From assembly GCA_016297005.1 (NCBI GenBank), contig JAEDHK010000007.1, positions 27,465-91,464 on the forward strand: a stretch of 64,000 nucleotides of DNA. Reading direction: 5' to 3'. Below are positions 1,377 through 16,918 of this stretch, in pieces; position 1 is the first letter of the stretch, and every line of letters begins with the position of its first letter. The stretch comes from Clostridia bacterium. Lineage in GTDB: Bacteria > Bacillota > Clostridia > Christensenellales > DTU072. The notes below the pieces were generated by a model that ran no database searches, had not been told where the DNA came from, and saw only the letters and a program-made list of their open reading frames with translations. A program made the translations under genes and the position numbers.

Positions 1377-1438
1377 GATAACCACCTGTTTTTATTTTGT
1401 ACAATAATTATATCATGCGTATTTTTTTTTGTAAACCC

Positions 1439-2125
1439 TCACAACGGCGAAATTCTTGGTTTATTTTGTAGCCTGGGATACCTATCCGGAGTTTTGGACG
1501 CTTTTTCAAACACAAGCACGGTCCGTTTATCGCCGTACAGAAGAAATTCTTCCCGGCAAAGCAGTTTTCCGCCGAGAATACGTAAAGCGCGTTCTGATTG
1601 CGTCAGTTCTTCTTCCGCGTTTCCTTTATAAGCGACGAAAACGCCCCCGACGCGCACCAAAGGCAGGACGCATTCGAGCAAGGTCGGCAAAGGGGCAACC
1701 GCGCGAGCTACCGCCGCGTCGAACTTTTCCCGATACGTTTTCGCGCCTTCCTCCGCGCGCATATGTACGGGCGTTACGTCGGACAGACCCATCTTTTCGG
1801 TCAAAGACTGCAAAAAGACGATTCTTTTATTCAGACTGTCCATCAACGTGAATTTCAGATCCGGACGAACGATCTTAATCGGTACGGCAGGAAATCCGGC
1901 TCCGCTTCCTACGTCTACGACGGTCGCGTTGCGCGGCAAAAACTTCTCGCCCAAAACGCTGTCCAAAAAATGCTTGACGGCGATCTCCCGATCGTCGGTT
2001 ATCGCCGTAAGATTAACTTTTTCGTTATACTCTTTCAGATATTCACGGTAGAGGACAAACAGATTTTCCTGTTCGACCGTAAGGCTTTTTCCTGCTTCCG
2101 AAAAGATTTTTGCAACGTCGTTCAT
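1439..2125 (-). CDS. rsmG: 16S rRNA (guanine527-N7)-methyltransferase RsmG/GidB
   Basis: SAM-binding motif VVDVGSGAGFPAVP and a GidB-like length. ATG 2125 immediately follows the upstream stop at 2128-2130. Confidence 0.9.
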   Translation of the reverse strand: MNDVAKIFSEAGKSLTVEQENLFVLYREYLKEYNEKVNLTAITDDREIAVKHFLDSVLGEKFLPRNATVVDVGSGAGFPAVPIKIVRPDLKFTLMDSLNKRIVFLQSLTEKMGLSDVTPVHMRAEEGAKTYREKFDAAVARAVAPLPTLLECVLPLVRVGGVFVAYKGNAEEELTQSERALRILGGKLLCREEFLLYGDKRTVLVFEKASKTPDRYPRLQNKPRISPL

Positions 2126-2127
2126 TA

Positions 2128-3696
2128 TCAGCTCACTTCGTTGATACATTCTTCCGTCATGACGAAATCAGCCGTTCCGCGGATGGTATCCTGACCTTCC
2201 GTACGATCGTACGTTATCGTGAGGGTATCTCCCGTACGCATCGTCAGCATCAGATCGACGATGATGAAAGAACGGTCCACTTCGTGTTCTTCATAGACGC
2301 TCTCCGGATCTCCGACGTGGTGGATCTTTACCGAAACAAGAACGTCCCCTGCTTTTAATTTTCCATCGGAAAGACTTCCCGAAGATATTTCCACAACCTT
2401 AATTTTTTCTTTTATTTTTACCTTTCCTGTACTCGCGTCCATCACGGCGCTACTCTGGCAGGAAGAAATGGTAATGCCGAGCATACATTTACGAACGTCG
2501 GCATTCTTATTCGCGCTATCTTTATAATAAAGAATATTTTCCACAATATACTTCACAACGTTGGAGGGGAGCGCATATCCGATGTTTTCTACGTTAATAA
2601 CGGTAGATTTCGCGTTGACAATACCAATTATTTTGCCTTCGTCATCGAACAAGCCGCCGCCGCTGTTTCCGGAGTTAATGGCTGCGTCGACGCGCATAAC
2701 GCGGAAAGAAGCGTATTCTCCGCTGTTGTCCAACAGCTCCATGACGAGGTTTTCGCTGTCCACGCTGACGACGCCCTTGGTTACGGAAATGCCCTTACTT
2801 TTGGCGTTGCCCACCGCATAGGCGGCCTGTCCCGCAACAACCTCGTTACTGTCGGCAAAGTCGACCGCCACCGCATTACTGTTCTTTAAAATCTCGCTGT
2901 TCTCTACGTACAAAACGGCAATATCGTAATGTTGAGACCCCCCGACGTAGGTCGCTTCGATTCCCATGCCGCGATAGTCCGGCACTCCGGTCAGGTTTTC
3001 TTGCTCGACAAAATCGTCCGTGTAGAACTCGGTGCCTTTTACCTCGCTGCCATACAGATAAACAAGAATATCGTCGCTGATTCCCTGTTGACTGGCCACG
3101 TTGTATACAAGATGATAGTTTGTTACGATATACGCGCTGCCTTCCTCTTTATTGATGGAGTAGATTGCACCGCTTCCGGCCGTCATGGCGATCTGCGTTC
3201 CCGTCTGGTAACCGCCGCTTCTATAGGTAAAAGACGTATTTTGCACGTCAAAACGGCAGTATACGGACACCGTGCCGAACAACGCGTTTTTCGATACTCC
3301 CGTTTCTTTACTGACGCTGAAATAATCTTCCAAAAAGTCGAAATACGATCCGGTATAACCTTTCTTCTGCGCTTCCGCGTAGAGATCGCCGGCGGTAATG
3401 GACGCGTCTTTACCGTTCATTCCGTCGTTTCCTTTTAAGTATTCGAGCCACTCTTTTTCCGTTCCGGAAAACCCGTTTCTGACGGCGATATCATAGGCGG
3501 ATTCTCCTTTGATGCATTTTAAAAAGTCATCCATCGTCCCTTCGAATCCATTCTCCACCGCCAACGCGTAACATGCGTCGAGAGAGACGTCTCCGCCGGA
3601 AGTCTTTTTTTCGCCGCTCTCTCCGCACGCCGCCAATGTTAGCAGCATCAGCATCATCGTTGCGACCGTAGCAATGATAAGTAGCTTCTTTTTCAT
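2128..3696 (-). CDS. Lipoprotein with three N-terminal helical repeats, a trypsin-like serine protease domain and a PDZ-like C-terminus
   Basis: Signal peptide with lipobox LAAC. Triad context: TNYHLVY (His), YDIAVLYV (Asp), GNSGGGLFD (Ser). C-terminal LKAGDVLVSV looks PDZ-like. GGAGG SD present. Confidence 0.8.
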   Translation of the reverse strand: MKKKLLIIATVATMMLMLLTLAACGESGEKKTSGGDVSLDACYALAVENGFEGTMDDFLKCIKGESAYDIAVRNGFSGTEKEWLEYLKGNDGMNGKDASITAGDLYAEAQKKGYTGSYFDFLEDYFSVSKETGVSKNALFGTVSVYCRFDVQNTSFTYRSGGYQTGTQIAMTAGSGAIYSINKEEGSAYIVTNYHLVYNVASQQGISDDILVYLYGSEVKGTEFYTDDFVEQENLTGVPDYRGMGIEATYVGGSQHYDIAVLYVENSEILKNSNAVAVDFADSNEVVAGQAAYAVGNAKSKGISVTKGVVSVDSENLVMELLDNSGEYASFRVMRVDAAINSGNSGGGLFDDEGKIIGIVNAKSTVINVENIGYALPSNVVKYIVENILYYKDSANKNADVRKCMLGITISSCQSSAVMDASTGKVKIKEKIKVVEISSGSLSDGKLKAGDVLVSVKIHHVGDPESVYEEHEVDRSFIIVDLMLTMRTGDTLTITYDRTEGQDTIRGTADFVMTEECINEVS

Positions 3697-13642: not shown

Positions 13643-13976
13643 TACAGAGCCTCCATAGAAAAAACTGCTTATTATTATATAACAGAAACAATAAATATGC
13701 AATTCTTTATTTTTATCAATAAATGAAAGATGTTGAGAAATAACAACCTGCTCTCCTTTTGCAAAGTGTGAAAACTTACGTCCTTCCCGTACATAGCGTG
13801 GGAGAAAAGGGAGATTTTGTCCGCACGCCTAATGGCGTGGAGAGATGGTTTTTAATGGACTCCGCGCAAAAAGATAGCTTTATTCTGTTGCCTGTTTTTT
13901 TAAAACCCCCACCACACAAAGTGTGTCCATCCCCCTTTACAAAGGGTGTAAACAACCTTTGTACTATAAAAAAATT

Positions 13977-13996
13977 CGCCCCGGCTCTGCGGGGCG
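13977..13996 (-). terminator. Terminator of the ABC transporter operon
   Basis: CGCCCC-8 nt-GGGGCG, followed on the minus strand by AATTTTTTTATAG. Confidence 0.7.
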
Positions 13997-14010
13997 AAAT
14001 AAAACTTTTT

Positions 14011-15138
14011 TTACAGAACTTTCGATAAAAATCCTTGCAAACGCTCGTTCTTCGGATTTCCGAACACCTGTTCCGGCGGGCCATCCTCGGCGATCTTACC
14101 TTGGTCGATAAAGAGCGCGCGGGTGGCGACTTCTCTCGCAAATCCCATTTCGTGCGTTACGATGATCATGGTCATACCTTCTTCGGCAATCTGCTTAATA
14201 AGATCAAGCACTTCGCCCACCATTTCCGGGTCGAGCGCGCTGGTCGGCTCATCAAAGAGCATCACCTTCGGATTCATCGCAAGAGCACGTACGATGGCAA
14301 TACGCTGTTTTTGTCCGCCCGAGAGGGTAGACGGATAGACGTTGGCCTTTTCGGCAAGTCCGATCCGCTTCAAAAGCTTCATGGCGTTTTCTTCGGCGGC
14401 GGCGACGATCTCTTTCCTGTTCTTATACGGCGGATCGATCTTCGTCTTCGGCGTCGGATAGGTTACCCTCTCGATAAACCGTTCGGCATTTTCGATCTTG
14501 GTCTGAATGGCAAGACGTTGTTTGGTCAACTTCGGATCGTAATGGACCTGCTTTTTCCCGGCCTTTTCTTCCACTTTCTTAGTTTGTTCCCAGGCTTTTT
14601 CGATCGGAACAAGCTCGTCTTGCAACTTCTTGATCTCTTCCTTCTTCTGAGCGATCTGTTTATCGATGCGCGCGTTCAGCTTCTCTTGATTTTTGGCAAG
14701 CCACTTGTTATACGTCGGCATAATGAAGTTATTCCACTTTGCCTTTCTCAGCTTTTCCGTCTCCACCTTAACAGGCGCAAGAGTAATGTTTTTCATTACG
14801 GTCAGGTTATTGAACAGATTAAACTGTTGGAACACCATACCGATATTCCTGCGACATTCGTTGATATTGATCTTCAGGTCGGTCAGGTCCTCGCCCATAA
14901 AGATAATCTGTCCCGCCGTAGGGTCCTCCAACACGTTCAGACATCGCAAAAAAGTAGTTTTTCCTCCGCCGGACGGTCCAATAATGGCAATACGATCGCC
15001 CTCGTAAATATCAGCGGAAATATCATCGAGAACGAGAAGAGAACCAAAACGCTTGGTCAGGTGTTTTACCTCGATAATAGTCTTCTTTTGCACGGAGGTC
15101 TCCGCAACGTTATTTACTTTATCTGTCACTTTTTGCAA
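14011..15138 (-). CDS. Polar amino-acid ABC transporter ATP-binding protein with a ~115-aa helical insertion
   Basis: Walker [11 protein letters not shown]-loop MVFQQ, signature LSGGQKQR, Walker [13 protein letters not shown]-loop VTHEM. An alternative GTG start at 15092 with a GGAGAC SD is possible. Confidence 0.85.
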
Positions 15139-15841
15139 ACCTCCTTTCGATCAGTCTGATAAGTGCGGTAATAACCAAAACAAGGATCAGGTAAACAGCA
15201 CCCAAAATAAGATACGGTACAATATACTCATAGTTACTGTCGGCAATAGATTTAAATGCTTTGGTCAAATCGACGACGGCAATAAAACTGACGACCGATG
15301 TTTCTTTGATAAGCACGATAAATTCATTACCGAGAGTGGGCAAAATATTCTTTATTGCCTGCGGTATAACGACCTTAAACATTGTAAAACCGTAACTGAG
15401 TCCAAGCGTGCGCCCTGCTTCCAATTGTCCTACGTCGACCGACTGGATACCGCTACGCATGATTTCGCTGACATACGCGCCGCTATTCATACCATATACA
15501 GACATGGCAACGATTACTCGATATAGCGTGATATTGATATTCAACGTAGCCGGTTTCAGATTCATCGCCGGGAATAACACGAAGTAAACAATCAACAGTT
15601 GCACCATGATCGGTGTTCCGCGGAAAATGGCGATGTACGTATCAGCAATCTTGCCAAGGACTTTTGTGACGATATTGTTCTGAGGCGTAACTTTAATAAC
15701 GGCAAGGATGGTACCGATGAGTATTCCCAATAACAGACCGACAACGGCAATAATTACCGTTGTCTTCAGTCCGTCTAATACGTCTTGGTATCCACCGTTC
15801 GTGTAAAACGAACGCCAGAATATATTCCAACTTTGTTCCAT
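15119..15841 (-). CDS. Amino-acid ABC transporter permease (His/Glu/Gln/Arg/opine family)
   Basis: EAA loop [22 protein letters not shown] and about 5 TM helices. Confidence 0.85.
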
Positions 15842-16737
15842 TATTTTTTATTCTTAAATACGTTGATCACATCATCAGCCGTCGAGCAAGCATCAAATTC
15901 CGTATTGGATTTCTTAACGATAAGAACCTGAGCGGCACCTTCTTCATAGGCATGGGAAAAAGTAACCGATTGAGCACGCTTGGCATTAACGGTCAAGCAA
16001 GCAAGAGCAATGTCCGCATCTCCCTGCTGAACGGAAGTAACAACAGCGTCAAAGTCCATATCGCTGATAACGAGTTCCATTTCCAATTCAGCGGCTATGA
16101 TCTTAGCAATTTCCATGTCAATACCATAGAATTTGTTTCCGATCTTGTACTCATAGGGAGCAAATTGAGCGTTAGTAGCAAGGACAAGCTTATTGGTGGC
16201 GTTGGCATTTCCGTTCTCAATACCGACATAAACATCGGAATTGGGAGCGGAAGCACTGGCTTCATCATCTGAAATATCGATATCCGCATAAGCGGCATAA
16301 ATAGCATCCAAAGTTCCGTTAGCTTTGATATTATCAATGATGGTGTTGATACTGGCAAGCAGATCGGTCTTATTTTTATTAACGCCGATTGCGTATTGTT
16401 CAACAGTCAAAGCAATGTCGATCATCTTGATATCGTTGGGGTTGGCAGTAACAAGAGTATTCGCAGTAGCCTTATCAACAACAGCGTATTCGATGTTGCC
16501 GTTCTTCATATCGTTAACAGCAAGACCGATAGTCTGATAAGAAGACACCGTCCCGTTCGGAATTCCGGCAAAGCCCCAATCGGCGTCGCCTTTGATATAG
16601 GCTTCTCCGGTAGTACCGGCCTGAGCCCCGATGGAAATGGTTTTTTCACCCTTATTGCAAGCGGCAAAGGCACATACGCAACCGACGGCAAGAACGACTG
16701 CCATGATGGCTATTAAAATTTTCTTTACGTTTTTCAT
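15841..16737 (-). CDS. Family-3 (polar amino-acid) solute-binding lipoprotein with its two halves in permuted order
   Basis: Lipobox FAAC and an AAGGAGAA SD at MKNVKK. It contains GlnH/HisJ-like blocks, but the C-terminal-half blocks come before the N-terminal-half blocks. Confidence 0.8.
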   Translation of the reverse strand: MKNVKKILIAIMAVVLAVGCVCAFAACNKGEKTISIGAQAGTTGEAYIKGDADWGFAGIPNGTVSSYQTIGLAVNDMKNGNIEYAVVDKATANTLVTANPNDIKMIDIALTVEQYAIGVNKNKTDLLASINTIIDNIKANGTLDAIYAAYADIDISDDEASASAPNSDVYVGIENGNANATNKLVLATNAQFAPYEYKIGNKFYGIDMEIAKIIAAELEMELVISDMDFDAVVTSVQQGDADIALACLTVNAKRAQSVTFSHAYEEGAAQVLIVKKSNTEFDACSTADDVINVFKNKK

Positions 16738-16918
16738 TTTAAAGATTTCTCCTTCTTTTATTTGTCCATATCTTACCACCGAAAACGTATCCTAGCAAAT
16801 ATTTGAATGAAAAAATAAAAAATATTCATTATTCGGTATTAAATTATATATTTATGCAAATATTTATGAATAAATTCGTGCATTAAACGAAATTCTTCTG
16901 GATTTTACTCAACAAAAA

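Follow-up and report, generated by a model that had tools for sequence, protein, structure and literature searches.

The window analysed here, the whole 64,000-nucleotide (nt) stretch of Clostridia bacterium contig JAEDHK010000007.1, encodes an ATP-binding cassette (ABC) importer ATPase of the PAAT type (GlnQ/ArtP/HisP-like) that carries a long, unannotated arm between its Q-loop and its signature motif. The arm is a selected, folded, lineage-specific module. The reading adopted here, which we regard as an even call, is that a folded arm has been grafted into the helical subdomain of the ATPase, where, on the part of the protein coupled to the permease, it would work as a rigid lever for docking or regulation. 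All coordinates are window positions and all residue numbers are those of the window ATPase, the parts of which are as follows.

14011..15138, reverse strand: gene of the arm-bearing ATPase, 375 amino acids (aa), identified by ABC_tran, by alignment with ArtP and by Foldseek.
14764..15138, reverse strand: N-terminal core, residues 1-125, with Walker A (nt 14956-14979), the Q-loop and the helix of the coupling-helix cleft; aligns to ArtP 24-132.
14665..14763, reverse strand: proximal stalk helix of the arm, residues 126-158, unbroken from the core helix, strongly basic and sequence-variable, with invariant P141-x-Y143-N144 and N155 (AlphaFold2 confidence, pLDDT, >90; charge; conservation).
14587..14664, reverse strand: distal part of the long helix, residues 159-184, with heptad positions I162, I169, L176 and W183 and invariant P178 and E184 (AlphaFold2, conservation).
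14536..14586, reverse strand: β-hairpin at the arm tip, residues 185-201, with invariant T186, K187, G194, K195, T199 (His in the window protein), Y200 and D201 (AlphaFold2, conservation).
14467..14535, reverse strand: return helix, residues 202-224, with a/d positions L204, K208, L211, I215, A218 and I222 and a conserved charged face of K214, E216, E219, R220 and R224 (AlphaFold2, conservation).
14401..14466, reverse strand: extended Pro-rich return strand, residues 225-246, running back along the stalk helix to the core (AlphaFold2: residues 225-240 irregular, high pLDDT).
14011..14400, reverse strand: C-terminal core, residues 247-375 and stop codon, with the core helix, LSGGQ (residues 272-276, nt 14311-14325), Walker B, D-loop and H-loop; aligns to ArtP 135-262.

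Judged by its sequence, the ATPase is an intact GlnQ/ArtP-type enzyme with a predicted role in amino-acid uptake. A preliminary description of this region had reported all ABC motifs to be intact, and both the sequence and the alignment with ArtP agree: Walker A (GPSGGGKT, residues 54-61), Q-loop (MVFQQ, 101-105), signature (LSGGQKQR, 272-279), Walker B (MLFDE), D-loop (SALD) and H-loop (VTHEM) are all present, and the catalytic motifs are more than 90% conserved across 122 homologues. Pfam finds a single ABC_tran domain spanning residues 37-300 (E = 1.2e-35). The best phmmer matches among PDB sequences are ArtP, ArtN, TTHA1159 and HisP (E = 8e-84 to 2e-67), every one of them in two pieces; in the case of ArtP (2olj, E = 8e-84), query residues 21-129 align to ArtP 24-132 and query residues 247-374 to ArtP 135-262, and about 115 residues of the ATPase therefore have no counterpart. 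The predicted core superposes on ArtP (2olj_A) with a TM score of 0.95 and a root-mean-square deviation (rmsd) of 1.9 Å, and on ArtN in a full transporter (4yms_A) with a TM score of 0.96 and an rmsd of 1.5 Å. The query-normalised TM score of ABC chains in the Foldseek search against the PDB is only 0.62, and hence no solved ABC chain covers the arm. Motifs, sequence and fold similarity, and the BPD_transp_1 and SBP_bac_3 partners all place the protein in the PAAT family. None of the NCBIfam equivalog cut-offs (GlnQ, TcyN, EhuA, HisP, ArtP) is reached (best GlnQ, 302.6 versus 379 bits), because the insert divides each match into two stretches, and for this reason no substrate can be named. Members of the family are called "amino acid ABC transporter ATP-binding protein" in the databases or, in some records, just "ATP-binding cassette domain-containing protein".

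The preliminary description had placed an insertion of about 115 aa in the helical subdomain at 14416-14763; the alignment with ArtP and the Foldseek superposition confirm it, and these coordinates correctly correspond to residues 126-241. Family-wide, the block is 121 aa (residues 126-246, nt 14401-14763), about 115 residues of it extra, and is inserted between two successive helices of the helical subdomain, the first of which is the post-Q-loop helix. It contains 24 Lys, 14 Glu, 6 Arg and 4 Asp with neither Cys nor Ser, and its Lys and Glu codons account for a dip in G+C content over the insert. Across the family the insert has a mean net charge of +15.8, with values from +5 to +22, whereas the core averages -5.5. 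The proximal stalk accounts for +8 on average but is of high entropy in its sequence; on the head there is a conserved surface of mixed charge.

AlphaFold2 was run on the full protein with the 122-sequence alignment and on residues 110-262 with 30 diverse sequences. The full-protein model has a mean pLDDT of 90.1 and a predicted TM score of 0.84, with the insert at about 88-95; the arm-only model has a pLDDT of 92.7, and its secondary structure is unchanged. In the predicted order, a continuous helix (residues 114-184) leads to two β strands (188-192 and 195-199), a helix (202-224), an irregular Pro-rich segment (225-240) and the normal core helix (241-258). The core helix after the Q-loop, which lines the coupling-helix cleft, is thus predicted to be about 60 residues, or about 90 Å, longer than usual. 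The outward path (59 x 1.5 Å, about 88 Å) agrees with the return path (23 x 1.5 Å, about 35 Å, plus 16 x 3.3 Å, about 53 Å, together about 88 Å). The arm is accordingly predicted to consist of a stalk, formed by one helix and an extended strand, that bears a head of two helices and a β-hairpin. The model bears out the projection of the arm from the core that the preliminary description had suggested, but not its symmetric antiparallel hairpin of two helices, in place of which there are a long helix, a β-hairpin, a short helix and an extended strand. The heptad-like spacing that it had noticed holds for the distal third, where conserved hydrophobic positions are so spaced on both head helices (I162/I169/L176/W183 and L204/K208/L211/I215/A218/I222).

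Selection on the arm is evident from its length, its conserved positions and its substitution pattern. The block is 121 aa long in 119 of 122 aligned homologues and exactly so, with no insertion or deletion (indel), in 24 of 24 species-level sequences, even as identity to the window protein falls to 31-41% in the insert versus 69-80% in the core. When the window is compared with one related locus (L002), the insert has a ratio of non-synonymous to synonymous substitution rates (dN/dS) of 0.05-0.12 and the cores one of 0.01-0.05 (0.014 in the C-terminal core); the insert is under purifying selection. Invariant positions, or those changed in no more than one of the 24 sequences, are P141, Y143, N144, N155, L172, L176, P178, W183, E184, T186, K187, G194, K195, T199 (His in the window ATPase), Y200, D201, L204, T205, K206, K214, E216 and R220. 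The head is the most conserved part of the arm in the 122-sequence alignment, and the Pro-rich return strand differs in sequence between two subclades. Within that strand, one homologue (P0117; locus L027, 4001-5878, assembly GCA_045535785.1, contig JAZSMH010000028.1) carries a further nested, AT-rich, in-frame insertion of about 265 aa that starts with CCLNKYTT and ends with ISGRCC, which brings the protein to 625 aa in a normal operon context; this nested segment has no Pfam match and no canonical intein C-terminus.

The arm is widespread among relatives of the ATPase and, in the searches made, was found only in them. In a whole-protein search, the best 120 clusters listed are 63-96% identical to the window protein over 95-100% of its length and nearly all 357-411 aa long; this length implies that they carry the insert, so that the family comprises at least 120 protein clusters. 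The insert alone retrieved two fragments only in a word-indexed search and, in an exhaustive phmmer search of 1.84 billion cluster representatives, six proteins of 34-47% identity, all of them GlnQ-type ATPases or fragments, with no free-standing homologue of the arm. Matches to the insert alone are few presumably because arm-bearing members were filed under ordinary nucleotide-binding domain (NBD) representatives in the 50% clustering. Close and distant homologues, then, commonly carry the segment, which the preliminary description had named, together with a match to a known annotated domain, as a reason to doubt its peculiarity; the known domain was not found. Nothing scores above cut-off for the insert in Pfam or NCBIfam or is found by a PDB sequence profile search, no match with E < 0.1 is found for the arm-only model by Foldseek against the PDB, and no description of an importer NBD with a comparable insertion was found in the literature searched, which is absence of evidence within that scope. 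The claim that no annotated domain accounts for the insert is upheld in Pfam, NCBIfam, the PDB and that literature.

A scan of GTDB with one genome per species was positive for 22 species, all with intact open reading frames of 356-395 codons, a count obtained with a single peptide pattern that misses the common GKxF variant. The 22 carriers are metagenome-assembled genomes (MAGs). Their labels read Christensenellales, Christensenella sp., Clostridia, Candidatus Stercoripulliclostridium or Firmicutes CAG:475, and the gut samples that yielded them are of human, chicken, roe-deer and other origin; the carriers are all gut Clostridia, Christensenellales-like. The GTDB records of six loci (L005, L006, L012, L018, L024 and L009) are titled "uncultured Bacteroidaceae" or "Butyrivibrio crossotus" despite an operon of the Clostridia type, and the MAGs so titled are likely to be mislabelled bins. 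The block is in frame in the 22 GTDB species loci and in a further locus (L028), which are independent assemblies; the doubt raised in the preliminary description that the insert might be an assembly artefact is thereby removed.

Two loci have a broken copy. In L001 (at about 2070) and L002 (at about 812), which encode proteins 85-89% identical, the ATPase gene is interrupted inside the insert at the same base, corresponding to window nt 14572-14583 at the arm tip. The break is a contraction of A5 to A4: the intact loci L028 and L029 read ACC AAA AAG GTG, and L001 and L002 read ACC AAA AGG T. The protein P0002 is 97-99% identical to intact proteins of 359-364 aa on contigs of up to 248 kb. In the 13 codons directly 3' of the break there are six substitutions between L001 and L002, all synonymous in the downstream frame, and over 54 downstream codons there are eight synonymous and no non-synonymous substitutions. 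The likeliest origin of the break is an error of sequencing or assembly, or else a slip that happened very recently. A split gene whose halves are joined by the arm was rejected on account of the one-base contraction, the intact relatives and the purifying selection on the downstream frame; a programmed -1 frameshift was rejected as well, C-AAA-AGG being, on inspection, no slippery heptamer. L001 and L002 are different contigs from different samples (ERZ27257207 and ERZ27317927), yet the break recurs in both at one short homopolymer.

A docking or regulatory function is most likely for the arm, as far as its position and anatomy allow us to infer one. The helical subdomain of importers is the most variable region of the NBD, provides the docking site for the EAA coupling helix and rotates relative to the RecA-like subdomain on ATP binding (PMC6906923, PMC3150292). 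As a rigid, unbroken extension of a helix in the subdomain that turns during the ATP cycle, the arm would act as a lever, and a rotation of 15-25° would move its tip by about 25-40 Å with the nucleotide state. The conserved head may dock at a fixed distance on a defined partner, which could be a protein of the cytosol or a different portion of the transporter itself, and the stalk, in which positive charge is kept while the sequence varies, may lie near an anionic surface such as the inner membrane leaflet or nucleic acid. Docking could report the state of the transporter, or it could restrain rotation of the helical subdomain and so gate the ATPase and transport, which is the role of the C-terminal regulatory domains of MalK, MetN and ModC. 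Several considerations weigh against the docking or regulatory lever. No candidate partner emerged, and no neighbouring gene beyond those of the solute-binding protein (SBP) and the permease is conserved across related loci; the conservation of many head residues could serve folding only; the structure is a prediction built on 122 fairly similar sequences; the lever and gating steps are pure inference.

A bolder form of the same idea, possible though doubtful in our estimation, is that the importer independently evolved an effector arm in the style of ABC-F or SMC proteins, that is, a rigid, length-locked basic lever mechanically linking the ATPase cycle to a second partner, be it a regulator in the cytosol, a transporter next to it or even the ribosome or nucleic acid. 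The arm might alternatively be a tether, with the β-hairpin heads pairing within or between transporters or the arm embracing the partner NBD, so that the ATPase subunits would be held together when nucleotide-free in place of the C-terminal dimerisation domains that NBDs of the GlnQ/ArtP type lack. The high conservation of the head and the strictly fixed length, which fits a ruler-like geometric constraint, are consistent with such a device, as is the precedent of the MalK regulatory domains, which hold the dimer like tweezers (PMC6906923); the topmost Foldseek match is to prefoldin β, in which β-hairpins mediate oligomerisation, but neither this match (E 0.4, probability 0.8) nor any other is significant, and the helical subdomains occupy opposite corners of the two-fold NBD dimer, from which rigid 90-Å arms probably diverge, so that pairing of the heads within a single transporter is doubtful on geometric grounds. 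We consider the tether unlikely. Rather less probable still is an outrigger that acts by electrostatics alone, the basic arm lying along the anionic inner leaflet next to the permease and stabilising or positioning the NBD with no specific partner. Most of the family-wide charge of about +16 falls on the proximal stalk, which keeps its charge but not its sequence, the site aligns to MalK residues 103-108, and the insertion adjoins the membrane-facing coupling cleft (PMC3150292, PMC6906923), all as an outrigger would have it; left unexplained are about 20 invariant mixed-charge residues of the distal head and the exact conservation of length, and no free hydrophobic face is evident, since packing against the return strand appears to occupy the conserved residues of the stalk.

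It seems very improbable that the arm has no function and is the passenger left by an old in-frame insertion that a permissive loop at the surface tolerates: the variability of the helical subdomain among NBDs (PMC6906923) and the further nested insertion of about 265 aa tolerated by P0117 are in its favour, but dN/dS of 0.05-0.12, the total absence of indels in 24 species despite 60-69% residue turnover, the invariant motifs and the confidently predicted fold all speak against it. There is next to no likelihood that the insert reflects an artefact or a mobile element, be it a chimera of the assembly, a gene with a frameshift, an intein or a soluble ABC protein put to a new use, despite the metagenome contigs L001 and L002 that are broken inside it and weak Pfam matches to SMC_N and AAA_21. 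The one-base contraction is absent from the 97-99% identical intact relatives, the downstream frame is under purifying selection, the insert is intact in hundreds of independent assemblies, the SMC_N score of 33.6 bits falls short of the cut-off of 40, and the gene is always in an operon with the permease and SBP genes. An intein was rejected specifically: the block has only 121 aa, no Cys or Ser, no intein end motifs and no Pfam intein match. The docking or regulatory lever remains the reading that we prefer.

The ATPase gene is the last of an SBP-permease-ATPase unit, the order of which is the same in every related locus. Because of this conserved context the arm-bearing protein is evidently still an importer subunit and not a soluble ABC protein. 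The other features of the unit are listed below.

15119..15841, reverse strand: permease gene, BPD_transp_1, 240 aa (Pfam; upstream of the ATPase gene in all related loci).
15841..16779, reverse strand: gene of the lipoprotein SBP, SBP_bac_3, 312 aa (Pfam, locus comparison).
13975..13998, reverse strand: strong terminator-like hairpin of 9 pairs, 7 of them GC, with a T-run, directly 3' of the ATPase stop codon.
16843..16870, reverse strand: promoter-like site upstream of the SBP gene, matching 10 of 12 consensus positions (a consensus match only).

The hairpin at 13975..13998 marks the end of the three-gene operon. The start of the ATPase is ambiguous, either TTG at 15138 or GTG at 15129; with either start, the gene shares 11-20 nt with the end of the permease gene, compared with about 14 nt in relatives, and the overlap suggests translational coupling. 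No Rfam element, including any riboswitch or T-box that would hint at the substrate, lies between 13500 and 17300, and a tblastn search of the window with the ATPase found no second ABC ATPase at an E value of 1e-3 or better. An antisense open frame of 374 codons (14035-15159, forward strand) is without homology support and is almost certainly a shadow open reading frame.

The window SBP is circularly permuted relative to those of several related loci (L007, L014, L018-L021, L023 and L028), its residues 197-304 matching the first part and 50-157 the second part of their SBPs; positions 1-95 of the Pfam SBP_bac_3 profile fall on its residues 198-293. Comparison of window positions 15119-16650 with L028 positions 1408-3014 gives only 52% identity for the permease and 29-42% for the mature SBP, between flanks that are 87-97% identical to those of L028 and L029 (IorA 96%, Lgt 92%, arm-bearing ATPase 92%, SBP signal peptide, aa 1-44, 91%). 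The window permease is closer to those of the distant loci L020, L021 and L023 (60-62%). A cassette of permease and mature SBP has evidently been replaced between close relatives, with recombination end-points that appear to lie just past the SBP signal peptide and at the permease/ATPase junction. Contact of the arm with the permuted SBP, suggested in the preliminary description, finds no support, the arm being equally conserved beside canonical non-permuted SBPs. A link between the two was rejected, given that the SBP, a lipoprotein, lies outside the cell and the arm in the cytoplasm, and that the arm is 90% identical in L028 with its canonical SBP.

Known regulation of ABC importers proceeds through C-terminal domains of the NBD (MalK, MetN, ModC, OpuA) or through external proteins. 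If the arm has a partner, it would offer a different way to control or read out the power stroke, directly at the coupling subdomain, and the insertion hot spot between Q-loop and signature that is exploited by ABC-F proteins, SMC/Rad50 and UvrA would also be used by transporters. An effector arm, if that bolder idea is true, would mean that binding-protein-dependent importers can be regulated, or can signal, in a way that is new for them. The family, compact and well predicted, is limited to gut Clostridia with small genomes. Its annotation would benefit from a profile of its own, since the insert drops members below the NCBIfam equivalog cut-offs.

The closest known proteins are ArtP, ArtN, GlnQ and HisP (PDB 2olj, 4yms, 1b0u), which share all catalytic motifs, about 60% identity in the core, the core fold and the operon with BPD_transp_1 and SBP_bac_3 partners, but are 240-260 aa long with a loop of about six residues (RKWPRE in ArtP) where the window ATPase has its 121-aa arm. 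The C-terminal domains of MalK, MetN, ModC and OpuA are likewise accessory modules of importer NBDs that regulate or hold the dimer (PMC6906923), an analogy of function only: they are C-terminal, not in the helical subdomain, and their folds are unrelated. Prefoldin β subunits, the best Foldseek matches of the arm alone (E 0.4-0.8, TM score 0.35-0.49, rmsd >16 Å; non-significant), have the same order of helix, β-hairpin and helix, but the return helix of the arm is much shorter than the outgoing one and there is no sequence similarity.

Arms at the same site are known from other branches of the ABC superfamily. Long insertions between Q-loop and signature have been described for UvrA, RecF and RecN (PMC3688454). 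Those of SMC, Rad50, RecN, RecF and UvrA run to hundreds of residues and end in a hinge, a zinc hook or a DNA-binding domain, unlike the window arm, which has no Cys and no hinge; assignment to the SMC/Rad50/RecN type was rejected, the SMC_N cut-off not being reached and the Foldseek matches to Smc2 and the Rad50 hook having E > 2. The Arm of ABC-F proteins, an appendage for binding a partner that follows the movement of the ABCα subdomain, binds the L1 stalk, is Lys/Arg-rich and includes a polyproline hot spot (bioRxiv 10.1101/2023.06.15.543498; PMC6723617). In a MAFFT alignment with ABC1 of E. coli EttA, the EttA Arm (residues ~95-139) falls in the same gap as the insert, which, with the published account (bioRxiv 10.1101/2023.06.15.543498), confirms the common site proposed in the preliminary description. 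The Arm of EttA and Uup and the window arm occupy the same site in ABCα and are both protruding, helical and Lys/Arg-rich with Pro-rich stretches. The ABC-F Arm, however, is a simple helical hairpin of about 45 aa, variable in length and often lost, whereas the window arm has 121 aa, a strictly fixed length, a β-hairpin tip and an extended return strand; the arm has no sequence similarity to the ABC-F Arm, the exhaustive phmmer search having returned only the six GlnQ-type proteins and Pfam nothing above cut-off. ABC-F proteins are also soluble, with tandem ABC domains, a PtIM linker and no permease, in contrast to the single-NBD importer subunit found here, and an ABC-F assignment was rejected because a single NBD of 375 aa, with an overlapping permease gene, lacks the tandem ABC domains and PtIM. 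What is already known is thus the presence of arms at this site in ribosome- and DNA-binding relatives; what is new is a conserved, unannotated arm subdomain in the NBD of an importer.

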